A stretch of 64,000 bases of DNA from an uncultured bacterium. Lineage in GTDB: Bacteria; Patescibacteriota; Dojkabacteria; SC72. The stretch lies in assembly GCA_903906305.1 (NCBI GenBank), contig CAIVJR010000007.1, positions 45,809-109,808 of the forward strand, read 5' to 3'. The notes under the pieces are model-generated. The model searched no databases. It was not told the DNA's origin and worked only from the letters and a program-made list of their open reading frames with translations. A program made the translations under genes and the position numbers. The number at the start of each line of letters is the position of its first letter. The stretch's first letter is position 1. Below are positions 3,816 to 46,232 of this stretch, piece after piece.

Positions 3816-3861
3816 ATTGCTAATTTTAACTTAATCCATGAAAAATTGATATAATACGACC

Positions 3862-13381: not shown

Positions 13382-13846
13382 ATGAAAGAAAAAATACTCC
13401 TAACCAAGGAAAAGAAAGAAGCCTTAGAATTAGAATTAAAGAATTTAATTGAAGTTAAGAAACCTGAAATCTCTGCAGCTTTGGCATTAGCAAGGCAAAA
13501 TGATTTGAGTGATGACACGGATGATCTAAGCATTATGTTGGTAGAGAAGGAATCTTTTGAGGATAGGATCAAGGAATTAAAAGAACTTTTGGCAAATTCC
13601 AAGGTTATAGATAAAAAATTCTGTACTCCAAACAAAGTAAGTGTTGGTTCTGAAATCAAAGTTGAATTCAATGGAAAGAAACAGGATTTAAAACTTGTAA
13701 CTACATTGGAATCAGATCCACTAAAAGGATATATATCTGAAGGTTCTCCATTAGGTAAAGCTTTGTTAAAAGCTCAAGTAGGGAAGACCGTTGATTTCAA
13801 GGTAAAGGGAAGAAAATTTGAATACAAGATCTTAGAGATTTGCTAA
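13382..13846 (+). CDS. GreA/GreB-family paralogue (second Gre factor)
   Basis: It has a 154-aa coiled-coil N-terminus plus a C-terminal FKBP-like domain (GSPLGKALLKAQVGKTV). The coiled-coil tip (NDLSDDTDD) diverges from canonical DxxE. Confidence 0.6.
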   Translation: MKEKILLTKEKKEALELELKNLIEVKKPEISAALALARQNDLSDDTDDLSIMLVEKESFEDRIKELKELLANSKVIDKKFCTPNKVSVGSEIKVEFNGKKQDLKLVTTLESDPLKGYISEGSPLGKALLKAQVGKTVDFKVKGRKFEYKILEIC

Positions 13847-16855: not shown

Positions 16856-16932
16856 TGGCTCCTCGTGCGTGGGTTCGAACCCGCGACCTAGTGATTACAA
16901 TCACCCGCTCTAACCAACTGAGCTAACGAGGA
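16856..16932 (-). tRNA. tRNA, anticodon region reads GUA (Tyr); class I, irregular anticodon arm and T-stem
   Basis: On the minus strand the acceptor stem is UCCUCGU/ACGAGGA and the D-arm is UAGCUCAGUUGGUUAGAGC. The T-loop is UUCGAAC. The 3' end carries G then CCA. The anticodon arm is only 16 nt (GGUGA-UUGUAA-UCACU). The T-stem needs a bulged A to pair. Confidence 0.65.
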
Positions 16933-27653: not shown

Positions 27654-28058
27654 ATGATTAAGAGTATAGTTTTTGATTTTAATGGAGTAATCTTTGACTC
27701 CAGTACGCATCATATAAATGAGGATGTGATTGAGTTGCTTAAAGACTTGTCTGAATCTGATTTCAGGTTACATCTTTTTTCCAATACATCTAAACAGGCT
27801 ATAAATATTCTTAATGCTAAGTATGATTTCTTAAAATATTTTAAGAATGTAATTCTTGTTGAAGATACAAGACTATCTAAACCCTCTGATGCCTCATTTG
27901 AAAATCTTCTTAAAGTAACAGGTGAGGTTGGAGAAGAGATGGCATATATAGATGATGGAAAGGATAATCTTAGGCAAGCTAAGAGATATGGAATGGTAGC
28001 TATTCCTTTTGTAGATGCAGATAGGCTAAGGATTAGCTTAGCTTCTTTAGATATTTAA
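27654..28058 (+). CDS. small HAD-superfamily hydrolase-like protein (motif I DxN variant)
   Basis: Motif I is FDFNGVI (Asn in place of the second Asp). Motif II is LFSNTS, motif III is K in LSKPS, and motif IV is DDGKDN. Confidence 0.5.
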   Translation: MIKSIVFDFNGVIFDSSTHHINEDVIELLKDLSESDFRLHLFSNTSKQAINILNAKYDFLKYFKNVILVEDTRLSKPSDASFENLLKVTGEVGEEMAYIDDGKDNLRQAKRYGMVAIPFVDADRLRISLASLDI

Positions 28059-28076: not shown

Positions 28077-28658
28077 ATGATAACTAGAGAAAGATGTATG
28101 CAGTTAATAGACAAATATGTAACTACTCCATGGCTTAAACTTCATATGAAGGAAAGCGATATCATTATGCAAGCTGTAGCTAATAGGCTTGGTGAGCATG
28201 AGGAGAAATGGGGATTGGCTGGCTTACTTCATGATTTAGATTTTGACTATGTTGGTAAGGATCCCGCAAGGCATGTGGTTGAGTTTGATGATATTTTGAA
28301 GATGGAGAATCTTGAGGTTGGTAAGGATATAGACAAGGATGTATATCATGCGATCAAGGCTCATTACGAAGAGAACCCCGGGGTTCCTGAAAACCGAGAG
28401 AACAACTTGGACTATGCGTTATCTGCTTCTGAGAACTTATCTGGTTTTTTAGTGGCTTGTGCTTTGGTTATGCCAGATAAAAAGATTGCGAGTGTTACTT
28501 CTGATACGGTTTTAAGAAAGTTAAAAAAGAAAGAATTTGCTAAGGGTGTTAGAAGAGATTTGATACAAGATATTGAAAAAACGGGTATATCCTTAGAAGA
28601 ATTTATTGATATATCTTTAGATGCTATGAAGGCTAGGGCTAGTGAACTAGGGCTTTAA
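28077..28658 (+). CDS. HD-domain phosphohydrolase
   Basis: The LLHDLD motif is present with His/Asp spacing typical of HD metal ligands. Confidence 0.65.
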   Translation: MITRERCMQLIDKYVTTPWLKLHMKESDIIMQAVANRLGEHEEKWGLAGLLHDLDFDYVGKDPARHVVEFDDILKMENLEVGKDIDKDVYHAIKAHYEENPGVPENRENNLDYALSASENLSGFLVACALVMPDKKIASVTSDTVLRKLKKKEFAKGVRRDLIQDIEKTGISLEEFIDISLDAMKARASELGL

Positions 28659-28681: not shown

Positions 28682-28755
28682 CGGGGCGTAGTTCAGATGG
28701 CTAGAGCGCTTGCATGGGGTGCAAGAGGTCGCACGTTCAAGTCGTGTCGCCCCGA
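28682..28755 (+). tRNA. tRNA-Pro (anticodon GGG), CCA not encoded
   Basis: The acceptor stem is CGGGGCG/CGCCCCG. The anticodon stem CUUGC/GCAAG encloses loop AUGGGGU, giving GGG. The T-arm is GCACG-UUCAAGU-CGUGU. Confidence 0.8.
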
Positions 28756-28778
28756 TATTTATTTAACCAAAAATAACA

Positions 28779-29123
28779 ATGAAATTTACTCCAGATTCAG
28801 ATTGTATGATAGTGGTATATGTCCCTTGCGAGAGTTTAGAACAAGCTGAGCACATAGGGGAACAGATTATGAAAAAGAAGTTATGTGCATGTGTGAATAT
28901 ATACAAAGATATGCAACCAATGTTCTTCTGGCCTCCTAAAACAGGAAATATAGAGAAGGGTAAAGAAGTTGTATTGCTATTGAAGAGTGTTAAATCAAAA
29001 TATGACGATATGGAAAAAGAAATAACGAAGATACATAGCTATGATGTTCCTTGTATATTTGCCATTCCAGTAATGGCAGTAGCAGATGGTTACTGGGAGT
29101 GGCTAAATGGAGAGATGGAATAA
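28779..29123 (+). CDS. cutA: divalent-cation tolerance protein CutA
   Basis: It is 114 aa. SYDVPCIFAIPV and YWEWL match the CutA1 fold signatures. Confidence 0.75.
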   Translation: MKFTPDSDCMIVVYVPCESLEQAEHIGEQIMKKKLCACVNIYKDMQPMFFWPPKTGNIEKGKEVVLLLKSVKSKYDDMEKEITKIHSYDVPCIFAIPVMAVADGYWEWLNGEME

Positions 29124-29176
29124 TTCTTTTTGTTAATTTAAATTTCTGTTAGAATTAAACAAGGAGGATAAAATAT

Positions 29177-29368
29177 ATGAGTAAACAAATAAATCAAACA
29201 AAATCGGGAAAAATTCGTGAGAAAAGAAGTGATACTTTGGTAAGAACAATTGAAAGAAAATACAACGTTGATCTTCAAGCAAGATCAGACATGAAGCTGG
29301 GGAATCTTTTAAAGGAAAAGGGCCTTCCCTCCTTGTCTAAGCTTATAAAAGAAACAAGAAAAGATTAA
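29177..29368 (+). CDS. small basic protein (63 aa), unknown function
   Basis: A strong ribosome-binding site (AAGGAGGA) lies 8 nt upstream. Its stop codon overlaps the start of the next gene as TAATG. Confidence 0.45.
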   Translation: MSKQINQTKSGKIREKRSDTLVRTIERKYNVDLQARSDMKLGNLLKEKGLPSLSKLIKETRKD

Positions 29369-29886
29369 TGGATAGCGAAATCTTTGGTTTTGTCGAAGAT
29401 ACATCTTTAAAGAATCGAATGATTGCAACACTTGAGCATGTGATTTTTTTAACGACTTTGTTAAAAAGTAAGCAAAGGAAAAAAGCGCAGTCTTATATTT
29501 ATAAAGATTGTATAGTCTACATAGCTTCCTTAATTGAGTGTGTATTAAGATACAAGATTCTTAAAGGTTTTCCAGACGAAAAATTTCCTATTAAGGATAA
29601 AGATTTTAGGGACGTAAAAGAGATACATAGACTATCCCCGGAAGAAAGAATTGTCTGGGGAATAGAAAAAAACAAAGAAATTAAAATCACAGGTGGCACA
29701 GATTTTTGTAAATTAAACGAAATAGCGAAAGATAAACTTATAATTGATTCTTCTACATTTGAAAGTTGTGAGGAAATAAGGAAATGGCGTAATACCATCC
29801 ATATTGTTGATACGGAAGAAAAAGAAATTTTCAATGAAAAAGATTTGGAAAAAGCATCTAGTACTTTGCTAAATCTTTGTAGTTAG
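29368..29886 (+). CDS. hypothetical protein with C-terminal Rx4-6H (HEPN-like) motif
   Basis: The protein is helical. The C-terminus carries EEIRKWRNTIHIV (R-x6-H, with an RN dipeptide). Confidence 0.4.
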   Translation: MDSEIFGFVEDTSLKNRMIATLEHVIFLTTLLKSKQRKKAQSYIYKDCIVYIASLIECVLRYKILKGFPDEKFPIKDKDFRDVKEIHRLSPEERIVWGIEKNKEIKITGGTDFCKLNEIAKDKLIIDSSTFESCEEIRKWRNTIHIVDTEEKEIFNEKDLEKASSTLLNLCS

Positions 29887-29909
29887 TAATTTTATTTTTA
29901 TATATTAAA

Positions 29910-30686
29910 ATGGAAAAAAACAAAAAACGGTTACTCATAATCATAGGAATAATCCTCTCCCTCTGTATACTCATCCTTCCCATAATCCTCCTTGTAAGGG
30001 GAACATTCACTATCGTTAAAAACGTATCTTCAGGAAGTAGCAAAACCATAACCAATACAGAAGAAATAGAAAAGAAAGTAGAAGTATCTCAAAATATAGC
30101 CTGGATATCTGGTTTCAGTACAGAAGAAGTAAAAGATACAAAAGAATTAGCCCATGTAAAAATATGGGTAAATGCAAACCTCTTCCATATGGATGCAATA
30201 ACCAGTTACACAATAAAAAATATTAAGGTAGAAGGATACAAGAAAGGAAAAGTAGCAATTGTTAAACCAGGACATATCAGCAATACCCTCACTATGTACG
30301 ACTATGTATGGGGACCATATGATGGCGAAATGAAATCAGCAGAAATCAAAGACAGTGGAAAAACCTTAACCTTTGATGTAGTAGATGTAGCCCACTACTA
30401 TGACGAAGTCTCCAAAGTAGGAACCTCAATGCCAACATGGGGTATCTTCCTAAAGGAATTAGGTGAATACAATTACAGAAAAATAATGGACAATTCAGGA
30501 CTGTTTGATAGTGAGAAGATATTGGAATATGCAGATGTGCAACCCAATGATCTCAATATATCTTTCTCTTTTGATGTAGAGATGGTATTTGAAGATGGAA
30601 CTAAATGGGTAAAAAGATTCTCTGCAGAATTAGATGGTGCAAAGATAGTAGAAAACAACAGCTATATGGTCGATCTTAGTTACTAG
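29910..30686 (+). CDS. membrane-anchored hypothetical protein
   Basis: An N-terminal TM helix is followed by a roughly 220-aa soluble domain. It lies immediately upstream of RuBisCO. Confidence 0.5.
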   Translation: MEKNKKRLLIIIGIILSLCILILPIILLVRGTFTIVKNVSSGSSKTITNTEEIEKKVEVSQNIAWISGFSTEEVKDTKELAHVKIWVNANLFHMDAITSYTIKNIKVEGYKKGKVAIVKPGHISNTLTMYDYVWGPYDGEMKSAEIKDSGKTLTFDVVDVAHYYDEVSKVGTSMPTWGIFLKELGEYNYRKIMDNSGLFDSEKILEYADVQPNDLNISFSFDVEMVFEDGTKWVKRFSAELDGAKIVENNSYMVDLSY

Positions 30687-30743
30687 GTTAACAAATGCAT
30701 GGGAATATCGTATAGTTAATAACTAAACTGTACCCTGCCCAAA

Positions 30744-32150
30744 ATGCAAAAAGAATATATTCAGATAGGGAATCCTAATGTCTTTAATGGCCAATATATG
30801 TTGGCTGTATTTAGATTACAAGGAGAGGAAGGAATGACACTTGTAGATACAGCAAGTGAAGTCGCAGCTGAATCATCTACTGGATCATTTGTTAAGATAG
30901 GAACAGCAACTGCTTTTTCAGAAAGCTTAGATGCTTTGGTATATCGAATAGATGAGAAAAATAACCTCGTATGGATAGCATACCCATGGAGAATATTTGA
31001 TAGGGGTGGAAATGTTCAAAACATCATGACCTTCATTGCCGGAAATGTCTTTGGTATGGCAAGTGTAAAGGTGTGTAAAATCCTAGATGTATATTTCCCG
31101 CCACAAATGTTAGTACAGTACGATGGACCAGAATATACCATTGATGATATGAGAAAATATTTAAATATTCAGGAAAGACCAATATTTGGAAGTATCATTA
31201 AACCAAAGATTGGGTTAACCTCTTCGGAATATGCAGAACTCTGCTATGACTTCTGGTCAGGAGGTGGTGATTTTGTTAAAAATGACGAGCCACAAGCAGA
31301 CCAAGACTTTTGCCCATACGACAAGATGGTACAGGATGTAAGACATGCAATGGACAGAGTAGAACAGGAAACAGGTAAAACTAAAGTCCATTCCTTCAAT
31401 ATATCTTCCTCGGATTACGATACCATGATTAAGAAGGCCGACTATATCCAATCTATGATGAAACCAGGAAGCTATGCATTCTTAGTAGATGGTATAACCG
31501 CAGGGTGGATGGCAATACAAACCATTAGAAGAAAATATCCGAATGTATTCCTACACTTCCATAGAGCAGGACATGGAGCATTTACAAGAGATGAAAATCC
31601 AATAGGGTATACAGTTCCCGTATTAACTAAATTTGCTAGACTAGCAGGTGCTTCAGGTATTCATACTGGCACAGCAGGTATCGGAAAGATGGCTGGATCT
31701 CCAAAAGAGGATGTCATGGCTGCAAATCATTCATTAAGATTGTATTCAGAGGGTGATTACTTTAAGCAGATTTGGTCTGAGATTCCAGAGAAGGATGCTG
31801 ATTTACAATTAGCTATACAGAAAGAAGCTCAAGGTGAAGATTACAGCAACCTTGGATATTGGAGAATAACTAAGAAGATGTGCCCAATTATTTCTGGCGG
31901 TCTAAATCCATTACTTGTTGGAGAATTCATAGATACAGTAGGAACTCAAGATTTCATAACTACAATGGGAGCTGGTGTACACTCACATCCAATGGGAACA
32001 AAAGCTGGCGCAACTGCTGTACTACAAGCATATGAGGCATGGAAGCAGAAAATATCTTTGGAAGAATATGCTAAGGACAAGGAAGAACTAAGAGTGGCTA
32101 TAGATTTCTATACCAAGCACGAGGTTCCACATCCTGATAAACAGGTTTAA
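30744..32150 (+). CDS. rbcL: ribulose-1,5-bisphosphate carboxylase/oxygenase large subunit, form II/III
   Basis: It has the activation and active-site motifs GGGDFVKNDE, HFHRAGHG, GGLNP and MGAGVHSHP. At 468 aa it lacks a form I N-terminal extension, and no small-subunit gene is present. Confidence 0.9.
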   Translation: MQKEYIQIGNPNVFNGQYMLAVFRLQGEEGMTLVDTASEVAAESSTGSFVKIGTATAFSESLDALVYRIDEKNNLVWIAYPWRIFDRGGNVQNIMTFIAGNVFGMASVKVCKILDVYFPPQMLVQYDGPEYTIDDMRKYLNIQERPIFGSIIKPKIGLTSSEYAELCYDFWSGGGDFVKNDEPQADQDFCPYDKMVQDVRHAMDRVEQETGKTKVHSFNISSSDYDTMIKKADYIQSMMKPGSYAFLVDGITAGWMAIQTIRRKYPNVFLHFHRAGHGAFTRDENPIGYTVPVLTKFARLAGASGIHTGTAGIGKMAGSPKEDVMAANHSLRLYSEGDYFKQIWSEIPEKDADLQLAIQKEAQGEDYSNLGYWRITKKMCPIISGGLNPLLVGEFIDTVGTQDFITTMGAGVHSHPMGTKAGATAVLQAYEAWKQKISLEEYAKDKEELRVAIDFYTKHEVPHPDKQV

Positions 32151-33163
32151 TCAAAAAGTCCTGTAATGGATTTTCTTTGATTTACTCGGCTAATGGCTTC
32201 TGCGAAGTAACTGGCAATTGAGACCTCTTTAAACCATTTTGCAGATTTCATAAATTCTTTGGAATGATATGTACTATCTGTTCCAATCACTAAATCTAAA
32301 TATCCTTTGTCATATGCTTCTTGGAATCTTTCAAAAGCAGGTCCATTGAAAAGCGCGTGTGTACAAACAGCTATAACCTTTTTTGCTCCCATATTCTTTG
32401 TCTCTTCTAATGCTTTTACTAATGTTCCACCAGTACAGATCATATCATCAACAATATATACATCCTTTCCACTTACATCTCCTAGGATAGACATTTTGTC
32501 TACAGTATTTGCTTTGCAATAGTTTCGAGCTTTGTATGTAAATGCAATATCAGTTTTCAAGGTTTGGGCATAGTGATTAGCACGTTTTGCACCTCCTAAA
32601 TCGGTAGGCATGATGACGGTATTTTCTTTGTCTTCAATCATCTTCTTTAATACTGGAATCAATACATATCCTCCCATGAGATTATCTATCTTTGCCCGTC
32701 TAAAGAATCCTTGGATTGCCGAGTTGTGTAAATCTACAGTTACCACATGGTCTACACTTCCATCACCTTCTAGCTCGTATGCTATTCTAGCTGCAGTAAT
32801 CCCCTCTCTTCCTGATTGCTTATCCTGTCTTGCATATGGATATGATGGTAATACCGTGGTTATTCTCTCGGCATCACATCTTCTACACGCATCTACCATG
32901 GTATACAATGCTCTGAGATTTTCATCGGTACTTTTTCCTTCTGAATGGTTCTCACAATCTTGGATAATGAAGACGTCCTTGCCTCTAATACTTTCATTAA
33001 TTATCGTTTTTACTTCTGTACTGGCAAAATGCATCTCTTCTGAATCAATGAGATGTACCTCTTCACCATGCTTTTTCTTTAATTCCTTTTCTATTCTCTT
33101 CGCAAAACTTAATCCAGATGCACAGGCCAATATCGAGAGTGGAGCTTTGGGTGTAGGAGTCAT
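32147..33163 (-). CDS. prs: ribose-phosphate pyrophosphokinase (PRPP synthetase)
   Basis: KDVFIIQDC, PYARQDK, DLHNSAIQGFF and YIVDDMICTGGT are present. The 3' end is convergent with rbcL and overlaps it by 4 nt. Confidence 0.85.
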   Translation of the reverse strand: MTPTPKAPLSILACASGLSFAKRIEKELKKKHGEEVHLIDSEEMHFASTEVKTIINESIRGKDVFIIQDCENHSEGKSTDENLRALYTMVDACRRCDAERITTVLPSYPYARQDKQSGREGITAARIAYELEGDGSVDHVVTVDLHNSAIQGFFRRAKIDNLMGGYVLIPVLKKMIEDKENTVIMPTDLGGAKRANHYAQTLKTDIAFTYKARNYCKANTVDKMSILGDVSGKDVYIVDDMICTGGTLVKALEETKNMGAKKVIAVCTHALFNGPAFERFQEAYDKGYLDLVIGTDSTYHSKEFMKSAKWFKEVSIASYFAEAISRVNQRKSITGLFD

Positions 33164-33239: not shown

Positions 33240-33824
33240 ATGGAAAATATTATGTCAAAGACTTTAGAGAACTTAACAAAGGCATTTATTGGGGAGAGTC
33301 AAGCTAGAAACAGATATACCTTTTACTCTAGTATTGCTAGGAAAGAAGGATATATTCAGATATCACAAATATTTGAAATGACTGCTACTCAAGAGAAGGA
33401 ACATGCTAATTGGTTAATGAAGATGATTCAAACATTAAAAGAGGATGTTAATGGCCTCAAAGTTGAAGCTGAAGCAAACTTTACATTGGGTACTACACAA
33501 GAGAATCTTAAAGCTGCTATTGAAGGTGAGATGTATGAGAACAAGGAGATGTATCCTGAGTTTGCTAAGGTTGCTAGAGAAGAGGGATTTGAGGATATTG
33601 CTAAGAGATTGGAATCTATTGCTATTGCTGAGGGTCATCATGCTGAGAGATATTCTAAGCTTCATACTGTATTAACAGATGGTACGATATTTAAAAAAGA
33701 TACCGAGGTTATATGGATTTGTTCTGAGTGTGGTTATGTATCTGTAGGGAAGGAACCTCCTGTAGAATGTCCATCATGTGGCCATGCACAGGGTTTTTAC
33801 TATCTGATGAATGAGGAATATTAG
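33240..33824 (+). CDS. rbr: rubrerythrin
   Basis: A ferritin-like diiron domain (ExxH pairs) is followed by a C-terminal rubredoxin-like CSECG...CPSCG. Confidence 0.85.
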   Translation: MENIMSKTLENLTKAFIGESQARNRYTFYSSIARKEGYIQISQIFEMTATQEKEHANWLMKMIQTLKEDVNGLKVEAEANFTLGTTQENLKAAIEGEMYENKEMYPEFAKVAREEGFEDIAKRLESIAIAEGHHAERYSKLHTVLTDGTIFKKDTEVIWICSECGYVSVGKEPPVECPSCGHAQGFYYLMNEEY

Positions 33825-33928
33825 TATATTTCTATCTGTATTATACTAGAAATAATTTTTGTATACAATATTGACTCAAAATAGGGTTGGATGGTAATAT
33901 TTGCCTTATAACATAAGCCTTTTTAAGT

Positions 33929-35740
33929 ATGAAGAAAGAAAAGGATATTACGTTCGGGGAGTATATAAAAATTTCAAAGTGGGTGCTAAGTATAGGTTTC
34001 AAAATATCACCAAGTAGTGAAATTATTAGATTAGTAGGGCAAATTTTTAATAATCTGGGATTTTTGTTCAATACATATATAATTTCAAAGATAATTGATG
34101 CTTTAGTAAAAGAATCTACATCTACAGATGCTACGATACAAAAACTCTTGCCATATCTCGGAATTTTGTTAGTTGTTAATACAATATTTGTAATAATTGC
34201 GGAATTAAGAGGTTACGCTGACAGAAAGATGAATCAATTATCTTCGCCCTTTTATGAAAAAATGAAGTATGACAAAGTTCGTGAATTAGGACTGCAAACC
34301 TTAGAATTTCCGGATATCGCAAATTTAAAACAAAAAGTCGAGGAATGGTTAGGATTAATTGGGAACATTGATAGCTCAATTGTGAATATTATATCTTTCC
34401 TAATCAGAATCATTGTTTCAGGGGTTGTACTTTATAGTACTGTGCCTATATTGATTCCGATTGTTCTTTTAGCTTCTATTCTTTTTTATTTTAATAAACG
34501 AAAATATTTTAAAATGGAGTTTGATTGGATCAGAAGAGAAGATCACATCTCTGGTAGACGTAAACATTACAAAATATCGTCTGATCTATCAAATGTTAAT
34601 ACAATAGGTGAAATTTCAATAACTGGAGCCCACGATTATCTTGATGCTAAATTTCAAAAGTTTTTTGATTATTATGCCTGGGGATTTCTTAGGATAATTA
34701 AAAAAGAGTATATTGCGGATTTTTTGTTGACCTTATTGAGCAATTTCGTAACGATTTTAGGATATATCCAAGTTTTTGTTATATATTTAGCCAAATCGAT
34801 TACTATTGGTAATGTGACTTTCTATTTAGGTACCATAGATGGGTTCTATTCTGGTATTGAAAGGTTCTTCAGAGAATTTGTCATATATCGAGATAACATG
34901 CTAAAAGTTAAGGACGTATATGCTTTTTTTCAGTTAGAACCAAAAGTTAAGGATGGAGAATATGTACTTCCAAGATTGATTAACCCACCATCGATTGATG
35001 TAAAGAATATTTCTTTTCATTATCCTAATAATAAAATAAAGATATTGAAAGACTTTTCGTTAACAATTAAAGCCGGAGAAAAAATAGCAATTGTCGGGGA
35101 AAATGGCGCGGGGAAATCTACATTGGTGAAATTGTTAGCGCGTGTTTACGATCCTCAAAGCGGAGAAGTTTTGATTAATGAAAGAAATATAAAGGAGATA
35201 AAATTGGATGATTGGTATAAAAACTTGGGAGTACTTTTCCAAGATTTTAACTTCTATGGAGAGCTTGATGCTCAGGAAAATATATATATTGGAAAATCTG
35301 TTAAACCAATGGATCGGGATAGAGTAAAAGAAGCCTCTGTTAATGCGGATGCTTATGATTTCATTCAAAAGTACCCAAAGAAGTTTGAAACTGTAATGAG
35401 TGAGAGGTTTGAAGGAGGAATACAACCAAGTAAAGGGCAACAACAGAAGATAGCTATAGCTAGATTCTTCTACAGAGATGCTCCTGTTGCCATATTTGAT
35501 GAACCTACCTCCGCTATAGATGCAGAATCGGAATACAAGATTTTTAATAAGATATATAAATTCTTTGATAACAAAACTGTTATCATCATTTCCCATAGGT
35601 TCTCTACTGTAAGAAATGCAGACAGAATAGTTGTACTTGACCAAGGAAGAATTGTTGAAGAGGGATCTCATGCAGAGCTTCTAGCTATGGATGGGAAGTA
35701 TGCTCAAGCATTTAAAAAACAAGCCGAAGGATATTTGTAA
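33929..35740 (+). CDS. ABC exporter, fused permease/ATPase (MsbA-like)
   Basis: A 6-TM N-terminal domain is followed by Walker A GENGAGKST, signature-like SKGQQQ and Walker B IFDEPTSAID. Confidence 0.8.
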   Translation: MKKEKDITFGEYIKISKWVLSIGFKISPSSEIIRLVGQIFNNLGFLFNTYIISKIIDALVKESTSTDATIQKLLPYLGILLVVNTIFVIIAELRGYADRKMNQLSSPFYEKMKYDKVRELGLQTLEFPDIANLKQKVEEWLGLIGNIDSSIVNIISFLIRIIVSGVVLYSTVPILIPIVLLASILFYFNKRKYFKMEFDWIRREDHISGRRKHYKISSDLSNVNTIGEISITGAHDYLDAKFQKFFDYYAWGFLRIIKKEYIADFLLTLLSNFVTILGYIQVFVIYLAKSITIGNVTFYLGTIDGFYSGIERFFREFVIYRDNMLKVKDVYAFFQLEPKVKDGEYVLPRLINPPSIDVKNISFHYPNNKIKILKDFSLTIKAGEKIAIVGENGAGKSTLVKLLARVYDPQSGEVLINERNIKEIKLDDWYKNLGVLFQDFNFYGELDAQENIYIGKSVKPMDRDRVKEASVNADAYDFIQKYPKKFETVMSERFEGGIQPSKGQQQKIAIARFFYRDAPVAIFDEPTSAIDAESEYKIFNKIYKFFDNKTVIIISHRFSTVRNADRIVVLDQGRIVEEGSHAELLAMDGKYAQAFKKQAEGYL

Positions 35741-35799: not shown

Positions 35800-36006
35800 A
35801 TGAAAGTATCTATAGACAAGACTAAATGTGCAGTATGTGGATCATGTGTAGCTATATGTCCTGAAGTATTTGAAATGAGAGATGATGGGGTCGTTGATGT
35901 TAAACCTGAGTATCAGGGAGTAGATATTACAGATCCTCAGATACAAGAAAAGGTTAGACAAGCATTTGATGCATGTCCTGCTATGGCAATAGTTATAGAG
36001 GAATAA
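35800..36006 (+). CDS. ferredoxin (single 4Fe-4S type)
   Basis: The protein is 68 aa and has CAVCGSCVAICP plus a distal C (DACP). Confidence 0.7.
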   Translation: MKVSIDKTKCAVCGSCVAICPEVFEMRDDGVVDVKPEYQGVDITDPQIQEKVRQAFDACPAMAIVIEE

Positions 36007-36012
36007 AGAGGG

Positions 36013-36423
36013 ATGGATGATTGTATCTTCTGTAAAATTATAAAAGGAGAGATTCCTTGTTACAAACTCTACGAGAATGATTCTGTTATTGCTTGGTTAG
36101 ATATTCAACCTTTAAGTAAAGGTCATCTCTTAGTTGTTCCTAAAGCACATTACCAAGATATTCATGAGGCATCAGAAGAAACCTTATGCGAGGTTATGAA
36201 GGTAGCTAGAATAATGGCGAACAAGGTTAAAACCGAATTACATCCAGAAGCAATATTGATTAATCAGAATAACGGTGAGAAGGCAGGTCAAACTATTATG
36301 CATTACCATATGCATATCAAACCAATATATGAGGATACCCATTGTAACACTGAAGAAGGACATAGAACGGGTTTTCCAGACGAAGAGATGAAGAAGATAG
36401 AGGAGATCCTAAAAGTAAACTAA
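36013..36423 (+). CDS. HIT-family (histidine triad) nucleotide hydrolase
   Basis: The HYHMHI triad, the N-terminal CIFCKI and GHLLVVPK are present. Confidence 0.8.
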   Translation: MDDCIFCKIIKGEIPCYKLYENDSVIAWLDIQPLSKGHLLVVPKAHYQDIHEASEETLCEVMKVARIMANKVKTELHPEAILINQNNGEKAGQTIMHYHMHIKPIYEDTHCNTEEGHRTGFPDEEMKKIEEILKVN

Positions 36424-36797
36424 ACAGATTGATATAGTTTTTGTAACTTCTTATCAAATGTTACTAACTCAGACTTATTCTCTTTTGCTAAGAAAAGTAT
36501 TACAGAATCAATAGCTGTAAATGAATGGGATAAATTTTTAGTAAATTCGATATACCTTTTTAAGTTTGATTCATTTAGACTTGGTGTCTCATCTGCCATT
36601 TTTAGACTTGTCTTAACACTAAAATCACGAAATTCTTTATTCCTTGAAAAGCTCGTAAGCTCTGCAAATACTACTGTGGGAACAGTAATTATAGCGGATC
36701 CAAATTCAGTTGCTATTTCGTTTGCTGCGAAATAATTAGAATCTTTATTGTTTAAGAAAGCACTTAGGAAACTTGTATCAAGCAGATATGTCTTCAT
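36420..36797 (-). CDS. PIN-domain toxin (VapC-like)
   Basis: It has the N-terminal YLLDTSFL acidic motif and is 125 aa long. It overlaps the upstream partner by 4 nt. Confidence 0.65.
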   Translation of the reverse strand: MKTYLLDTSFLSAFLNNKDSNYFAANEIATEFGSAIITVPTVVFAELTSFSRNKEFRDFSVKTSLKMADETPSLNESNLKRYIEFTKNLSHSFTAIDSVILFLAKENKSELVTFDKKLQKLYQSV

Positions 36798-37075
36798 ATC
36801 TGTTCTCTCTGTCGCCTTATGAACCCAACACTATCTCTGTATGTTGGGGCAGACATAGAGTATTTCCCAAATCTTTCTATAAAGGAGGGGCGCTTCTGTA
36901 TTGATTTTGTAACTTGTTTCTTTTTTACTGTGTAATCCTTTAAACTAGTCAAAACCGCAATAGGTTCTTTATTTTTTTTGTATCCTAGATATACAATTCC
37001 TCCATCTTTAACAAAAGACAAGGCTTCAGAAGGTTTTTCGTAAAATTCAGTTGTATTGTAAGTTCGTTTTTTCAT
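36794..37075 (-). CDS. Phd/YefM-like antitoxin
   Basis: The 93-aa protein has N-terminal TTEFYEKPSEAL...EPIAVLTSLKDY (YefM fold pattern). It lies upstream of the PIN gene and overlaps it. Confidence 0.5.
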   Translation of the reverse strand: MKKRTYNTTEFYEKPSEALSFVKDGGIVYLGYKKNKEPIAVLTSLKDYTVKKKQVTKSIQKRPSFIERFGKYSMSAPTYRDSVGFIRRQREQI

Positions 37076-38910: not shown

Positions 38911-39387
38911 ATGAATAAACTCCAGGTTATCAAACTGTATCGAAGTGAAAACTTTTACCATATATATAACCGAGGCAATAATAAGGCCTTGATTTCTCGT
39001 ACCAATAAAGATTACTTAGCCTTAAGAGGTTTGATGTATAGATTTTCCAAAGAGAATAAATTGTTAGTTGTAAGCTACTGCTTCATGCCAAACCATTTCC
39101 ATATGATTATTAAGCTTAGAGACGATTTAGAGGGTATATCCAAATTCATGCGGGCATACATGACCTCATATGTTATGTACTTCAACAGAAAATACCGAAG
39201 AGTGGGTCATTTATTTCAAGGTCCATTTCAGGCGAGGAGAATTGAAGACGATAGGGATTTGTATAAGGTTATAGAATACATAAAACGAAACCCAATTGAA
39301 GCAGGATTAATCTCGTCTAAAACAGGCCAGAAATATCGATGGTTATTTGTAAAAAGGACATTCGATAGGAGGGGAGGACTGACCTAG
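38911..39387 (+). CDS. REP-associated tyrosine transposase (RAYT, IS200/IS605 TnpA-like HUH Y1 enzyme)
   Basis: YHIYNRGNNKALISRTNKDY matches the RAYT N-terminus. The HUH motif is HFHMII, and the catalytic Tyr region is YIKRNPIEAGLI. Confidence 0.75.
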   Translation: MNKLQVIKLYRSENFYHIYNRGNNKALISRTNKDYLALRGLMYRFSKENKLLVVSYCFMPNHFHMIIKLRDDLEGISKFMRAYMTSYVMYFNRKYRRVGHLFQGPFQARRIEDDRDLYKVIEYIKRNPIEAGLISSKTGQKYRWLFVKRTFDRRGGLT

Positions 39388-40692: not shown

Positions 40693-41706
40693 ATGACAAA
40701 CGAATCAAGCATATTTAAAGATAAAGTACTATTAATTACTGGTGGAACAGGATCGTTCGGTAATAGGGTATTAAAAAGATTTTTAAATACAGATATCAAA
40801 GAAATCAGAATCCTTTCTAGAGATGAAAAGAAGCAGGATGATATGAGAAAGAAGTATGCAAATGACAAGATTAAATTTTTCATTGGTGATGTAAGAGATA
40901 TCAGTTCTGTAGATAACGTAATGAATGGGGTAGACTATGTCTTTCAGGCAGCAGCTTTAAAGCAAGTCCCTTCGTGTGAATTTTTCCCTCTTGAAGCTGT
41001 AAAGACAAATATTTTAGGAACGGATAATGTATTAACTTCCGCAATAAAGAATAAGGTAAAGAAAGTGATATGTTTAAGTACTGACAAAGCAGCATATCCA
41101 ATAAATGCAATGGGAATGAGTAAAGCATTAATGGAGAAAGTTGCAATTGCTAAGGCAAGAAGAGTTGATGAAGGAGGAACAGTAATCTGTGTTACAAGAT
41201 ATGGTAATGTAATGGGTTCAAGAGGTTCTGTAATCCCTCTTTTCTATGATTTAATCAGTAAAGATCAACCTTTAACAATCACAAATCCAGAAATGACTAG
41301 ATTCATGATGACATTAGATGATGCAGTTGAATTGGTATTATTTGCTTTCCAAAATGGTAACCCTGGAGATCTATTTATTCAAAAAGCCCCTGCAGCAACC
41401 ATTCAAACATTAGTAGAAGCAGTCTGTAAACATAAAGGAGTACCTGTAAATACTAAAGTAATTGGAACAAGGCATGGTGAGAAGGAATATGAGACTTTAG
41501 TAACAAAGGAAGAGATGCTAAGAGCAGAGGATATGGGTGACTATTTCAGAGTTGGAATGGATGAGAGAGATTTGAACTACGAAAAATACTTTGAAAAGGG
41601 TGAGACAAAGATAGAAAAGGTAGAGGAATATAATTCTAGAGATACTGAGAGATTAGATGTTGATGGAATGGTAAAACTCTTAATTAAAATGGGAGAGGTA
41701 GAATAA
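40693..41706 (+). CDS. UDP-GlcNAc 4,6-dehydratase/5-epimerase (CapE/FnlA/WbjB family)
   Basis: LLITGGTGSFGN, SRDEKKQDDMRKKY, AALKQVPSCEF and STDKAAYPINAMGMSKALMEK all match my memory of CapE/FnlA. Confidence 0.85.
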   Translation: MTNESSIFKDKVLLITGGTGSFGNRVLKRFLNTDIKEIRILSRDEKKQDDMRKKYANDKIKFFIGDVRDISSVDNVMNGVDYVFQAAALKQVPSCEFFPLEAVKTNILGTDNVLTSAIKNKVKKVICLSTDKAAYPINAMGMSKALMEKVAIAKARRVDEGGTVICVTRYGNVMGSRGSVIPLFYDLISKDQPLTITNPEMTRFMMTLDDAVELVLFAFQNGNPGDLFIQKAPAATIQTLVEAVCKHKGVPVNTKVIGTRHGEKEYETLVTKEEMLRAEDMGDYFRVGMDERDLNYEKYFEKGETKIEKVEEYNSRDTERLDVDGMVKLLIKMGEVE

Positions 41707-42566
41707 TGAAAATACTTTTACTTGGTGCGCAAGGAATGTTAGGACATGTTGTTAAAACATATTTTGAAGAACACGACTATGATGTAGTTTGCACAAACAG
41801 AGATGATAGAAAATCAGATCTATTCTGGGATGTTGTAGAGAACTTGCAAGATGTTGAAAAGATTATTGAAAAACAAAAACCAGCTGTAGTTATAAACTGT
41901 ACTGGGATTTTGAATAAGGTTGCAGAAGATAACAAATCATTAGCAGTGTTAATGAATAGCTATCTTCCTCACTATTTAGATGAGCTATCTGCAAAGTATA
42001 ACTACAAATTTGTTCATGTCAGTACCGATTGTGTTTTCAGTGGCGATAAAGGGGGCTATGATGAAACAAGTTTTAGAGATGCAAACAATTTCTATGGTCA
42101 ATCTAAAGCTTTGGGAGAAGTGATTAACGATAGAAGCGTAACTTTGAGAACTTCTATTGTGGGTCCTGATGTTAATCCAAATGGTATTGGTCTTTTTCAG
42201 TGGTTTATGAATCAAAAAGATACAGCAGGAGGATATACAAAAGTATTATGGACGGGTATTACAACCATCGAGTATGCGAAGGCAATGGAAGTTGCCATTA
42301 AGAATAACTTAGTGGGATTACATCATGTTGTTAATAATGAAGTTATCCCTAAACGTGATCTTTTAGAACTTTTCAAAAAATATTTTGATAAAGATATAAC
42401 TATTGAACCGAATGATACTGTTGAAAGTAAAAAAACAATCTTTAGAACTGATACGAGTTATGATTTTAAGGTTCCAAGCTATGACCAGATGGTTTCTGAG
42501 ATGAGAGATTGGGTAGTATCACATAAAGAAATGTATCCTGATTTAATTAGGGATATGAAAATTTAA
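41706..42566 (+). CDS. short-chain dehydrogenase/reductase, CapF/FnlB/WbjC-like (RmlD-like fold)
   Basis: The Rossmann start is MKILLLGAQGMLG. Its position between the CapE-like and WecB-like genes supports the call. Confidence 0.65.
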   Translation: MKILLLGAQGMLGHVVKTYFEEHDYDVVCTNRDDRKSDLFWDVVENLQDVEKIIEKQKPAVVINCTGILNKVAEDNKSLAVLMNSYLPHYLDELSAKYNYKFVHVSTDCVFSGDKGGYDETSFRDANNFYGQSKALGEVINDRSVTLRTSIVGPDVNPNGIGLFQWFMNQKDTAGGYTKVLWTGITTIEYAKAMEVAIKNNLVGLHHVVNNEVIPKRDLLELFKKYFDKDITIEPNDTVESKKTIFRTDTSYDFKVPSYDQMVSEMRDWVVSHKEMYPDLIRDMKI

Positions 42567-42584
42567 ATTGTTTCTTCAAGAATA

Positions 42585-43694
42585 ATGAAAGTAATGACAA
42601 TCGTTGGTACACGACCAGAAATTATTAAACTCTCATGTGTTATAGATGAGTTAGACAAATTTACAGATCATATTCTTGTTCATACAGGTCAGAATTATGA
42701 CTATGAATTAAACGAAATCTTCTTTGAGGGTATGGGTATTAGAAAGCCAGATATCTTTATGAATGCTGCCGGAGAGAATCCTGCAGAAACCATTGGTAAT
42801 GTTATCAAAATGTCGGATGAACTTTTTAAAGAACATAAGCCAGATGCATTGCTGATATATGGGGATACAAATTCATGTTTGTCAGTAATATCTGCAAAAA
42901 GAAACAAGATTCCTGTCTTCCATATGGAAGCCGGAAATAGATGTTTTGATCAAAGAGTTCCAGAAGAGATAAATAGAAAGATTGTAGATCACTTGAGTGA
43001 TATTAATATGCCTATTACTGAACATGCTAGGCGATATTTATTAGCTGAGGGTATTGCTCCGGAAACTATTATTAAAGTGGGTTCAAGTATGAAAGAGGTT
43101 TTAGAAAAAAATAAAGAAAGTATTGAAAAGAGCAAGGTATTGGAAGAATTAGGATTAGAGCCTAAAGAATATTTTGTGTTAAGTACCCATAGGGAAGAGA
43201 ATTTGGATAATCCAAAGAACTTGGAAGAGTTAGTGAATTCTATAAATGCAGTTGCCCAAAAATATGGTAAGCCTATTATATTCTCTACTCATCCTAGAAC
43301 TCAGAAGAAGATCGATGCAGGGGATATTGTATTTGATCCTTTAGTAAAGATAATGAAACCTCTTGGTTTTGCTGATTATATTACCTTACAAAAAAATTCT
43401 TTCTGTGTTATTTCTGATAGTGGTACTATTACAGAGGAATCTTCATTACTTGGATTCCCTGCTATTACTGTAAGACAGGCTCATGAGAGACCTGAGGGTA
43501 TGGATGAGGGAACAATCATAATGAGTGATTTGGATGCGGAGAGTGTTATAACTGCTATTGATGTTGTAACTACTGGAAACAAGCGAATGCACGTGGTTGA
43601 GGATTATAATACGGATGAATTAGCTACTAAGGTTGTAAGGATTATATTGAGTTACAAGGGATATATAAATAGAACAGTGTGGAAGAAGTATTAG
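42585..43694 (+). CDS. UDP-N-acetylhexosamine 2-epimerase (non-hydrolysing, WecB/CapG/FnlC family)
   Basis: IVGTRPEIIKL, HTGQNYD, DSGTITEES and a conserved H are present. Confidence 0.85.
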   Translation: MKVMTIVGTRPEIIKLSCVIDELDKFTDHILVHTGQNYDYELNEIFFEGMGIRKPDIFMNAAGENPAETIGNVIKMSDELFKEHKPDALLIYGDTNSCLSVISAKRNKIPVFHMEAGNRCFDQRVPEEINRKIVDHLSDINMPITEHARRYLLAEGIAPETIIKVGSSMKEVLEKNKESIEKSKVLEELGLEPKEYFVLSTHREENLDNPKNLEELVNSINAVAQKYGKPIIFSTHPRTQKKIDAGDIVFDPLVKIMKPLGFADYITLQKNSFCVISDSGTITEESSLLGFPAITVRQAHERPEGMDEGTIIMSDLDAESVITAIDVVTTGNKRMHVVEDYNTDELATKVVRIILSYKGYINRTVWKKY

Positions 43695-43704
43695 AAGTAT
43701 AAAA

Positions 43705-43923
43705 ATGAATAGCAAAGAAAAATATAATTATAGTAACAAAGAATCACAAAAACTTTTTGAAGAATTCACAATTCTCCTGGGAAAAATAACCTTGGATGCT
43801 GAAGAAAGGGGCAAGAAAATTTTATACTTAGAAAATGAGCTGGCAAAATACTCGAGCCTAAAATATATGTTGAAAATGATTTTTGCAAAAATAAAGAATA
43901 AGTTTGTGGTAAGTAAATCATGA
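43705..43923 (+). CDS. small hypothetical ORF (72 aa)
   Basis: Its reading frame abuts the next gene with a 4-nt overlap. I see no motif, so it may not be expressed. Confidence 0.25.
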   Translation: MNSKEKYNYSNKESQKLFEEFTILLGKITLDAEERGKKILYLENELAKYSSLKYMLKMIFAKIKNKFVVSKS

Positions 43924-45152
43924 AGATCCTATATGTAAATGATAATGATCTAATTGGTAGACGTTTCAATGGGCATGATTTACAGATTATGTTGAATAAG
44001 AAGAAGGGATATGAGGCTAAACAAGCTGTGATTGCAAAGCAAGGAACCGATCCTAACACAATAAGACTAATAAATACGGAAGGAGGATATTTCATTAGAA
44101 ATAAATGCCGAGAGATGGAGGAGAAATTGTCGATTCAATCTATGATATATCCTTTTGGAGAGTTGTTACGAGAACATCCTGCTTTCAAAGAGGCAGATAT
44201 TGTTCATTATCATCTTCTCTTTAATCACTTTATGTCTCTCTATTCTTTCAAACATTTAGCTCAGGAGAAACCTACTGTATGGACATTGCATGATCCATGG
44301 GCTTTAACAGGACATTGTGTGCATCCAATTGATTGTAAAGGATGGCTAACAGGTTGTCACAATTGTCCCCATCTTGATAGATATTCTCCATTGAAAGAAG
44401 ATAACTCACATGATATTTGGGAAATAAAAAAAGGAATATATAAAGATATAGATATAGATATTGTAGTAGCATCCCCATGGATGTTAGACCTTGTAAAGAG
44501 AAGTCCTTTGACTAAACATTTCAAACGAACTCACCTCATCCCCTTTGGAATAGACACAAACATTTTTAAGAAGAATATTAAGCATAAAGAATTAAGAAAA
44601 AAAATGAGTATTGATGAAAAATCTTTTGTTATAATGTTTAGGCAGGATGAGCAGGAATGGAAGGGTTTACCATATATCAAACAATTATTAGAGAAATTGG
44701 ACCAATCGTTAAATCTAACAATTTTAACCGTAGGGAACACAGGCTTATTAGATAAGTACAAAGACAAATTCCCAATTATCGAATATGAATGGTTAAACGA
44801 GCCAGAACAACTTGTAGAATTATATTCTGTTGCGAATTTGTTCTTAATGCCATCAATAGCTGAATCTTTTGGAATGATGGCAATTGAGGCGATGGGCTGC
44901 TCCCTACCTGTAGTCGTTTTCGAAGGAACGGCGCTTCCAAGTGTAACTTTTGCTCCTGAATGTGGCATTGCATTGGAAAAAGAAAATCCTGATGAATTTG
45001 TTGAAACAGTAACAAGGTTAGTCAAATCATCGGATGAATGTAAAAGAAGAGGAGATACAGGGAGAAAACTTGTAGAAGAGAATTATAATATAGAGTTGTA
45101 TAATCAAAGAATGATGAAATTGTATGACGAAATATCTGCCAGAATAAAATAA
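43920..45152 (+). CDS. glycosyltransferase, GT-B fold (GT4-like)
   Basis: The C-terminal E-x7-E region is AESFGMMAIEAMGCSLPVV. Confidence 0.75.
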   Translation: MKILYVNDNDLIGRRFNGHDLQIMLNKKKGYEAKQAVIAKQGTDPNTIRLINTEGGYFIRNKCREMEEKLSIQSMIYPFGELLREHPAFKEADIVHYHLLFNHFMSLYSFKHLAQEKPTVWTLHDPWALTGHCVHPIDCKGWLTGCHNCPHLDRYSPLKEDNSHDIWEIKKGIYKDIDIDIVVASPWMLDLVKRSPLTKHFKRTHLIPFGIDTNIFKKNIKHKELRKKMSIDEKSFVIMFRQDEQEWKGLPYIKQLLEKLDQSLNLTILTVGNTGLLDKYKDKFPIIEYEWLNEPEQLVELYSVANLFLMPSIAESFGMMAIEAMGCSLPVVVFEGTALPSVTFAPECGIALEKENPDEFVETVTRLVKSSDECKRRGDTGRKLVEENYNIELYNQRMMKLYDEISARIK

Positions 45153-45169
45153 TATTAATAAAAAGATAA

Positions 45170-46228
45170 ATGAAATCAGCAAAAAAGCGGATTGCGACAT
45201 TTAGTGAAGGAAATCTCAAGAATATCAAAATATATCTAACTGAAGAATACCAGGCAATTGCATATCCAAATGGTGATACAGATGTTCAGATGGTCAATGA
45301 TATCAAAAATAATCTCCCAAAGGGAAAAATAATATTTGATATTGGAACCTTTATAGGTGCCAGTTGTCTCGTCTTTGCGGAACTTGTTGGCAAAGATGGA
45401 AAAATTGTTGGTTTTGAGCCCAATCCTTTTAATAGAAAGAGAATAGCAGAGAACTTTACCTTGAATCCTGAACTCAAAAAAAGAATAACTGTCTCTCCAT
45501 TGGCGCTGTCAGATAAAGAAGGACAAATGACAATGACACTTAGTTCACAAATTGATAATGGATATAGCTCCACCTCTCGACTCAATCAAAGCCATCCAAC
45601 TCTTCATAATGATCAGCTCCCAAAAGGATTTGAAGAAGTTACTGTAGAAGTTACAACATTGGATAAATTTGTTGCTGAGAATAAAATAACACCTGATATT
45701 TTAAAGGTGGATATAGAAGGCGCAGAGTATGATTTCTTGCTTGGTGCAAAAAATACAATACAAAGATATAAACCAGTATTTTACATAGAATTACATTCAG
45801 AATTCTGTGCTGTAAGATGTGTAGAATTTCTTCATTCTATGCAATATGGGATTACAATATTGTATGAAGAAGAAGATAACCGAATAATGATTAAAGCCGA
45901 ATTTAATAAACAAACTGAAGCTATCTCAAACGACTTGGCAATTACAGCTCAAAGAAATCTTGATGCAAGTTTAAATATGATAAAAATTGCTGAGAAAGTT
46001 CTAAGTGATGAGGTTAAGAAGAATAAGGATTTGGAATCAAAGATTGAAACCCTTGGAAAAGAGATGGAAGATTTAAAAGCTCAAACTTTACCAATGAAAA
46101 AAGAGAACATTAACCTTAAAGAAGAAAATTATGCATTGAGAAATGCGCTTTCATCGTACGAGAATAGTAACAGTTGGAAAATAACAAAACCATTGCGTTC
46201 AATAAAGAATATATTACATAAAAAATAG
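45170..46228 (+). CDS. FkbM-family methyltransferase with C-terminal coiled coil
   Basis: FDIGTFIGASC is the FkbM SAM-binding motif. The last roughly 90 aa form strongly heptad-repeat coiled coil. Confidence 0.7.
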   Translation: MKSAKKRIATFSEGNLKNIKIYLTEEYQAIAYPNGDTDVQMVNDIKNNLPKGKIIFDIGTFIGASCLVFAELVGKDGKIVGFEPNPFNRKRIAENFTLNPELKKRITVSPLALSDKEGQMTMTLSSQIDNGYSSTSRLNQSHPTLHNDQLPKGFEEVTVEVTTLDKFVAENKITPDILKVDIEGAEYDFLLGAKNTIQRYKPVFYIELHSEFCAVRCVEFLHSMQYGITILYEEEDNRIMIKAEFNKQTEAISNDLAITAQRNLDASLNMIKIAEKVLSDEVKKNKDLESKIETLGKEMEDLKAQTLPMKKENINLKEENYALRNALSSYENSNSWKITKPLRSIKNILHKK

Positions 46229-46232
46229 AGAT

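Follow-up and report, generated by a model that had tools for sequence, protein, structure and literature searches.

A 64,000-nucleotide stretch of contig CAIVJR010000007.1 (assembly GCA_903906305.1, positions 45,809 to 109,808 of the forward strand), which we call the window and number from its first letter, carries an intact gene for a RuBisCO large subunit, rbcL, at 30744..32150 (+). The 468-amino-acid (aa) product is of form II/III, the host is a small uncultured groundwater bacterium of the Dojkabacteria (WS6) in the Candidate Phyla Radiation (CPR), and the surroundings of the gene are anaerobe-like and those of a non-autotroph. Judged from its sequence, we consider it very probable that the gene encodes a competent RuBisCO of the M. 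burtonii type, that this enzyme serves nucleotide salvage and that its position beside prs, the convergent gene for phosphoribosyl pyrophosphate (PRPP) synthetase, is incidental. An earlier note on this DNA had described a form II/III RuBisCO with all its catalytic motifs in a heterotroph-like setting, a description with which the residues, scores and tree given below agree. The start it gave, 29910, is that of an unrelated 258-aa hypothetical open reading frame (ORF); rbcL begins at 30744.

Family, active site and relatives of the RuBisCO

To place the rbcL product we drew on Pfam, NCBIfam, the PDB and a neighbour-joining tree. Pfam scans matched it to both RuBisCO domains (PF00016, E = 6e-88; PF02788, E = 2e-27). 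Against the NCBIfam form II-type equivalog NF010002 it scored 551 bits (cut-off 489), and it stayed under the cut-offs set for form III, for form I and for RuBisCO-like proteins; of the models for the last group, MtnW gave 129 and 91 bits, and OiaX gave 164 bits against a cut-off of 700. Comparison with solved structures yielded 1058 bits for 9DYP/9DYR, 659 bits for 8VGS/9B6L and 645 bits for 5MAC, the form II/III enzyme of M. burtonii, and the alignments to 9DYP, 8VGS and 5MAC were full length. Form II structures scored about 319 bits, the T. kodakarensis form III enzyme 223 bits and form I about 180–200 bits, and the best RuBisCO-like-protein structure, 1YKW, reached 157 bits. The tree covered 20 form II/III proteins, obtained by translating loci of relatives, and the spinach, R. 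rubrum and T. kodakarensis proteins, with form IV left out. All form II/III sequences formed a single clade in 100/100 bootstraps, with form II as its sister, and the window protein was placed within a Dojkabacteria subclade of form II/III. Its identity was 61% to the Methanolobus enzyme, 40% to that of R. rubrum, 36% to that of T. kodakarensis and 32% to that of spinach. The earlier note had proposed such a phylogeny as a check, and the protein grouped with form II/III, apart from forms I and III; form IV, a placement that would have spoken against its assignment, is ruled out by the scores and residues and not by the tree.

The active site is complete. Using the spinach, R. rubrum and T. kodakarensis references as residue rulers, each confirmed as a full-length PDB match, we inspected 19 catalytic or substrate-binding positions and found all of them conserved or carrying substitutions usual for the clade. 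The carbamylated lysine and the Mg2+ ligands, whose loss the earlier note had named as grounds for rejecting its assignment, are all present on alignment: K179, D181 and E182 in the motif GGGDFVKNDE correspond to spinach K201, D203 and E204. Further conserved residues of the window protein are N101, K153, K155, H273, R274, H277, H307, K315, S384, G385, G386 and G409, and in spinach numbering the conserved positions are E60, N123, K175, K177, H294, R295, H298, H327, K334, S379, G380, G381 and G403. The sole differences at the checked positions, T65S and G404A, are both common to other form II/III enzymes. All four motifs that the earlier note had listed for the 468-aa protein (GGGDFVKNDE with K179, HFHRAGHG, GGLNP and MGAGVHSHP) were found.

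An insertion of about 29 aa (about residues 350–380) precedes the P1-phosphate-binding loop S379–G381 (spinach numbering); measured against the R. rubrum and spinach enzymes, which have no counterpart, it amounts to about 30 residues. Its position and length are those of the M. burtonii type, in which the insertion is a small-subunit mimic that mediates (L2)5 assembly. The 8VGS sequence aligned across it ungapped, and that of 5MAC aligned in one stretch over residues 2–457. The M. burtonii and Methanolobus form II/III enzymes belong to the same clade as the window protein at about 61% identity, have the same active-site residues including G404A and carry the insertion in gap-free alignment with it; they differ in about 39% of the sequence, and M. 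burtonii, unlike the window host, is a methanogenic archaeon. Carboxylase activity has been demonstrated for the M. burtonii enzyme.

Three other known systems help to define the window enzyme. The form II/III RuBisCO of Peregrinibacteria is likewise from the CPR and is likewise tied to an AMP/nucleoside pathway whose genes do not lie beside rbcL. It has shown carboxylase activity and complemented a RuBisCO-deletion strain, and at about 61% identity it differs from the window protein in having no 29-aa insertion (PMC5113843). The T. kodakarensis form III enzyme (1GEH) shares the catalytic residues and the same predicted terminal step, from nucleotide-derived ribulose-1,5-bisphosphate (RuBP) to 3-phosphoglycerate (3-PGA). 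Unlike the window protein, to which it is 36% identical, it belongs to another clade and has no insertion, and its pathway partners are known experimentally. R. rubrum CbbM (form II; 5RUB/9RUB) represents the sister clade; it is 40% identical, has the same catalytic residues and likewise works with no small subunit, and it differs in working in the Calvin cycle with phosphoribulokinase (PRK) and in lacking the insertion of about 29 aa.

A scan for relatives, limited to one genome per species, yielded 80 RbcL loci, which we cite by handles (L001 and so on), as we do the metagenome loci. The best relative is a contig of a metagenome-assembled genome whose RbcL is 98% identical; next, at 97%, comes a bacterium of the Rifle aquifer, WS6 bacterium GW2011_GWC2_36_7. 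The exact window RbcL, with the same neighbours, also occurs in several other metagenome assemblies. The GW2011_GWC2_36_7 protein (LBSF01000049) is an orthologue of 468 aa that is identical at 454/468 positions. None of the 14 substitutions is catalytic; they fall at residues 328, 330, 332, 363, 392 and 394, with eight more in the C-terminal tail. The locus has the same layout as the window, HAD-HD-tRNA-Pro-CutA-h63-h172-h258-rbcL|prs-rbr. The sequence shown in 9DYP is the RbcL of this very bacterium (467/467 positions), deposited under the name 'ribulose-1,5-bisphosphate carboxylase'. A search of the accessible literature turned up no publication behind 9DYP/9DYR or 8VGS/9B6L.

Pathway partners and the proposed salvage role

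We looked for pathway genes in the window with Pfam scans of ORFs of at least 110 aa, excluding obvious overlapping antisense ORFs. Throughout the 64 kb these scans detected no small subunit (PF00101), no PRK (PF00485), no other cbb gene and no gene for adenine phosphoribosyltransferase (APRT), and a tblastn search with E. coli DeoA gave no match in the window. They agree with the earlier note, which had seen neither a small subunit, PRK or other Calvin-cycle gene nor an AMP phosphorylase or ribose-1,5-bisphosphate (R15P) isomerase. The neighbours of rbcL are housekeeping and accessory genes, with no cbb cluster. For a form II/III genome it is usual that the partner genes are not found in such a window (PMC6389311). 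Close grouping of the three pathway genes is a mark of form III-c, and form II/III does not typically show it (Jaffe 2019, PMC6389311).

Form II/III RuBisCOs, two of them with a 29-aa insertion, have been reported from WS6/Dojkabacteria and assigned to an archaeal-type nucleoside/AMP pathway (Wrighton 2016, PMC5113843). All RuBisCO-bearing CPR genomes examined in that work had homologues of AMP phosphorylase and R15P isomerase and no PRK, and AMP phosphorylase and RuBisCO were later found to be conserved in Dojkabacteria (Jaffe 2020, PMC7304191). The nucleotide-salvage role that the earlier note had proposed is the accepted reading for CPR form II/III enzymes. In the scheme that the family literature suggests, a DeoA-like AMP phosphorylase would convert a nucleoside monophosphate and inorganic phosphate to R15P, an e2b2-type isomerase would convert R15P to RuBP, and the window RuBisCO would turn RuBP, CO2 and H2O into two molecules of 3-PGA. 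The 3-PGA would enter lower glycolysis and yield ATP and acetate, and both partner genes would be encoded elsewhere in the genome. The neighbouring Prs most likely carries out ordinary PRPP production for base salvage; it could also supply the pathway by an indirect way (PRPP + adenine to AMP), which the literature already proposes, but a dedicated coupling gains no real support from the gene order. PRPP has been discussed as a possible input by way of APRT, and a direct PRPP-to-R15P route of thermophiles was judged unlikely at aquifer temperature (PMC5113843).

The DeoA probe matched within 10 kb of rbcL in 2/83 loci. One is L020 (Woesearchaeota), with a DeoA-family gene about 9 kb downstream of rbcL. 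The other is L074, with a DeoA-family gene at 3205–4158 (-), about 6 kb from a form II/III rbcL at 10001–11383. The ORFs of the L074 bacterium are broken under code 11, and it probably uses code 25 (SR1/Absconditabacteria-like).

The form II/III RuBisCO of Dojkabacteria is an already known enzyme type. It is less novel than had been assumed: published work covers the class of enzyme, the phylum that hosts it, the pathway presumed for it and the idea of a PRPP input (PMC5113843), and the structure of an orthologue with 14 substitutions has been solved.

The rbcL–prs junction and the variable segment

The gene that meets rbcL head-on, prs, lies at 32147..33163 (-) and encodes a 338-aa class I ribose-phosphate pyrophosphokinase (PRPP synthetase). 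Its product matched PF13793 (Pribosyltran_N), PF14572 (Pribosyl_synth) and PF00156 (Pribosyltran) and scored 289 bits against TIGR01251 (cut-off 113); in the PDB it comes closest to the E. coli and human class I Prs, at 178 bits. The earlier note had read the two genes as convergent with a 4-nucleotide (nt) overlap, and their stop codons do share the TTAA at 32147..32150, an overlap found likewise in L081–L087. Being convergent, rbcL and prs are not co-transcribed and form no operon. A sigma-70-like match on the plus strand at 30688..30716 (TTAACA-17-TATAGT, 10/12 consensus positions, 28 nt 5' of the rbcL ATG) suggests, as a consensus match only, a possible promoter of rbcL's own; sigma-70-like sites are rarer in the region than in shuffled sequence. 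Among Dojkabacteria-annotated proteins, Prs homologues form a smooth identity gradient from 97% to 53%, as would be expected of a housekeeping gene passed on by vertical descent. Two Dojkabacteria that are further removed have prs in other surroundings, and no RuBisCO gene is found up to 10 kb away from it.

The adjacency of the two genes is confined to a narrow group. In tblastn searches with the window neighbours, a convergent prs lay beside rbcL in only the four closest of the 80 genome loci (RbcL identity at least 91%) and in 0/76 of the others, which include Dojkabacteria at 64–81% RbcL identity. Over all loci the adjacency was seen only in L001–L004 and L081–L087, all with at least 83% RbcL identity. 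Metagenome contigs at 83–85% keep the overlap and the downstream block of rbr, ABC, fd, HIT, hydrolase and DsbA genes, and their genes 5' of rbcL differ from those of the window. Clustering of the ORFs around rbcL over the 80 loci returned lineage-specific neighbours only (CysRS in DPANN; NusA, IF-2 and PNPase; MgsA; RelA/SpoT), which speaks against a general conserved neighbourhood of form II/III rbcL. In a sister Dojkabacteria clade (RbcL 80–81%) the gene sits beside polynucleotide phosphorylase inside the otherwise classical cluster nusA-infB-[rbcL]-rpsO-pnp (L005 10001–11383, L006 10001–11383 and L088 10001–11425), a second, different insertion context of the same gene within one phylum.

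Comparison with L090, a locus on a 424-kb contig whose Prs is 69% identical, shows what the locus looks like when RuBisCO is missing. Gene by gene, L090 and the window agree in a backbone of 18 collinear genes: h381, DsbA, hydrolase, HIT, Fd (ferredoxin), Prs, HAD, h341, DUF3048, three hypotheticals, MiaA, LigT-like, SerRS, DHH and two ABC-2 permeases. The backbone order is HAD, (HD), tRNA-Pro | prs, Fd, HIT, hydrolase, DsbA. Of the content between HAD and prs L090 has only tRNA-Pro(GGG), which ends 2 nt from the prs stop codon; there is no RuBisCO there, the rubrerythrin and ABC genes are also missing, and Fd-HIT lies directly beside prs. In the window the corresponding interval, from the 3' end of tRNA-Pro to the 3' end of prs (28756..32146), is a variable accessory segment of 3.4 kb that holds CutA, an ORF pair, the 258-aa ORF and rbcL. 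Its contents vary among L001, L084 and L086, with rbcL at the prs end each time: the cargo of L084 is a TPR protein, CutA, the same 63- and 172-aa ORF pair, an ABC protein and rbcL, and that of L086 is an M28 peptidase-like gene, two hypotheticals and rbcL. The prs adjacency most likely reflects an insertion or retention site of rbcL and not a PRPP–RuBisCO module. We read it as incidental because it occurs in a shallow clade only and because the collinear L090 is without RuBisCO where the window has rbcL in a variable segment; this is in line with the history of lateral transfer that has shaped the distribution of CPR RuBisCOs (PMC6389311). The significance that the earlier note had implied for the prs neighbour is not borne out, as the adjacency is confined to one shallow Dojkabacteria clade, the genes are convergent and prs belongs to the backbone.

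Several points weigh against this interpretation of the enzyme and its locus. Neither a Glycos_transf_3/DeoA-type nor an IF-2B/e2b2-type gene was detected in the 64-kb window, and the pathway partners rest on the literature on related genomes. The literature search gave no activity or kinetic data for the window RbcL or its 97% orthologue. There is no integrase in the segment and no att-like repeat involving 28682–28755, so that we speak of a variable region and not of a demonstrable mobile island. The data fit a gain in the window clade as well as a loss in the L090 lineage. Finally, the 4-nt rbcL|prs junction is the one constant of an otherwise variable segment, which selection would also yield.

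A rival view is that prs and rbcL are a functional pair. Prs would turn ribose-5-phosphate (R5P) into PRPP, with AMP set free, and in an organism that has no pentose-phosphate pathway R5P would be channelled to 3-PGA by way of PRPP, R15P and RuBP. The conversion could run through APRT (PRPP + adenine to AMP, then R15P and RuBP) or by direct dephosphorylation of PRPP to R15P, with the tight overlap kept by selection and expression perhaps coupled by transcriptional interference. The overlap is invariant at RbcL identities of at least 83% while the other rbcL flank has been reshuffled, but conservation of a junction within a shallow clade is also expected from simple vertical inheritance; the genes form no operon, 76/80 genome loci are without the adjacency, and prs is found elsewhere in Dojkabacteria in unrelated contexts, abutting tRNA-Pro in the RuBisCO-free L090. 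The step from PRPP to AMP to R15P makes good biochemical sense and was already suggested for CPR bacteria, and Dojkabacteria are without upper glycolysis and the pentose-phosphate pathway (PMC5113843); however, the window holds no APRT gene, and the non-enzymatic PRPP-to-R15P route is a thermophile proposal, unlikely at aquifer temperatures (PMC5113843). We therefore regard a functional pair as unlikely. A slightly more doubtful elaboration is that the fixed junction is selected and that Prs, an unlinked APRT and AMP phosphorylase, and RuBisCO make up a route from imported R5P to 3-PGA. If true, this route would replace the missing pentose-phosphate pathway and upper glycolysis, and convergent overlapping transcription could balance PRPP for salvage against ribose burnt for energy.

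Two further alternatives concern the enzyme itself. Calvin–Benson-type CO2 fixation, with PRK encoded elsewhere in the genome, would accord with the score of RbcL above the NCBI form II-type equivalog cut-off, and a Peregrinibacteria form II/III enzyme can support CO2-dependent growth of a Rhodobacter host (PMC5113843). PRK homologues occur in some CPR bacteria, but they have been reported only for Gottesmanbacteria and Peregrinibacteria and not for Dojkabacteria (PMC6389311); the window has neither PRK nor another Calvin-cycle gene, and Dojkabacteria are without the gluconeogenesis, upper glycolysis and pentose-phosphate pathway needed to regenerate RuBP (PMC5113843). This makes a Calvin-type role very improbable. 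We give still less credence to a RuBisCO-like or non-carboxylating protein, such as a form IV-type enolase, isomerase or decarboxylase. Some WS6 'form III-like' proteins are indeed without catalytic residues and had no detectable activity (PMC5113843), but the window protein is form II/III and not III-like, has every catalytic residue and clusters with the form II/III clade in 100/100 bootstraps. Its MtnW and OiaX scores are far under the cut-offs, and the best RuBisCO-like structure reached 157 bits against 645–1058 bits for form II/III. A carboxylating form II/III RuBisCO in nucleotide salvage, beside prs by accident of locus history, is the reading that we carry forward.

The left edge of the variable segment is tRNA-Pro(GGG) at 28682..28755 (+), kept in L001–L004, L084, L086 and L094. 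Within the segment, a CutA1-family gene at 28779..29123 (+; identified by Pfam) recurs in L002 and L084 and was undetected in L001, L004 and L086. Two abutting hypothetical ORFs of 63 and 172 aa at 29177..29886 (+) have no family match and occur only in L002 and L084. The 258-aa hypothetical protein at 29910..30686 (+), also with no family match, has a hydrophobic N terminus; it is found at 56–86% identity in L001–L004 and is replaced by other genes in L084 and L086. Upstream of the tRNA lie a backbone HAD-family hydrolase (27654..28058, +), collinear in L090, where it is beside tRNA-Pro and prs, and, between it and tRNA-Pro, a 193-aa HD-domain (HDIG-like) phosphohydrolase (28077..28658, +) that is also found 5' of tRNA-Pro in L094. 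On the other side of prs, the flanking genes named in the earlier note are all in place. Rubrerythrin (33240–33824, +) and an ABC ATPase/permease (33929–35740, +) form a second segment, 33240..35740, that is not in L090, the ABC gene being missing from L004 as well; ferredoxin (35800–36006, +) and a HIT/HinT-like hydrolase (36013–36423, +) are backbone genes shared with L090.

Two of these neighbours were considered as RuBisCO partners and rejected. The HD gene travels with rbcL in the window clade, and three DPANN loci have an HD homologue (31–39% identical) no further than 10 kb from rbcL; a search from the HD side found form II/III or form III RuBisCO within 10 kb of HD homologues in 0/80 metagenome loci, of which 40 measured 8 kb or more. 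HIT homologues occur near rbcL in L025, L031 and L071, a co-occurrence that we treat as chance because the Fd-HIT backbone is present without RuBisCO in the collinear L090.

Other features of the window and the meaning of the locus

Two small modules lie downstream of the RuBisCO locus. An IS200-like Y1 transposase gene at 38911–39387 (+), between DsbA and a 381-aa gene (DUF8173-annotated in relatives), is present in L001 at 88% identity; it is not at that position in L004, L084, L086 or L090, which points to a recent insertion. A PIN-domain toxin gene with a small upstream ORF, a putative antitoxin, occupies 36420–37075 (-) between HIT and the hydrolase. The homologous pair of L084 and L086 is found several kilobases further downstream on the opposite strand, and the module has thus moved.

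Several features elsewhere in the window concern RNA. RNase P RNA of bacterial class A is encoded at 2515–2817 (+; 153 bits) and, at about 303 nt, is short relative to the 367-position model. A tRNA-like sequence at 16856–16932 (-) was left unassigned by ARAGORN (a 2-base 'gt' anticodon); it scores 38.9 bits in Rfam and has an encoded 3' CCA. Its anticodon arm can be read as GGUGA-UUGUAA-UCACU, with a loop of 6 nt and not 7 (8 if the closing A-U opens). Perhaps this is an atypical tRNA gene, resembling tRNA-Thr(UGU) or tRNA-Tyr, or else a pseudogene. A DUF3800 gene at 54543–55184 (+) stands between two DUF3800-IX RNA motifs (RF02968) at 54375–54446 (-) and 55151–55222 (-), which score 56 and 59 bits; this is a known yet unexplained RNA–protein association, here in a CPR genome.

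Among the protein-coding genes, two GreA/GreB paralogues (11361–11819, -, and 13382–13846, +) lie no more than 2.5 kb apart around a peptidase-like gene and trmD. A 458-aa protein encoded at 8476–9852 (+) has a CAP (cysteine-rich secretory protein/SCP) domain and may be secreted, or displayed on the cell surface, by an episymbiont. A cell-envelope glycan cluster of about 13.5 kb (40693–54222) encodes a CapD-like dehydratase, an RmlD-like reductase, a UDP-GlcNAc 2-epimerase, at least five glycosyltransferases (one a 782-aa GT2+GT4 fusion), an FkbM methyltransferase and an ABC-2 exporter pair.

As an enzyme discovery the window RuBisCO carries little weight: its type, its role in salvage and the speculative PRPP feed were published between 2016 and 2020, and the structure of an orthologue has been deposited. 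What the locus offers is a small genomic addition. In the window clade rbcL is the prs-proximal gene of a variable stretch that separates tRNA-Pro from prs, and in the sister clade it lies inside nusA-infB-rpsO-pnp; both loci are concrete examples of the RuBisCO mobility to which phylogeny had led Jaffe et al. Both also advise caution, in that function is not to be read from gene adjacency in compact CPR genomes.

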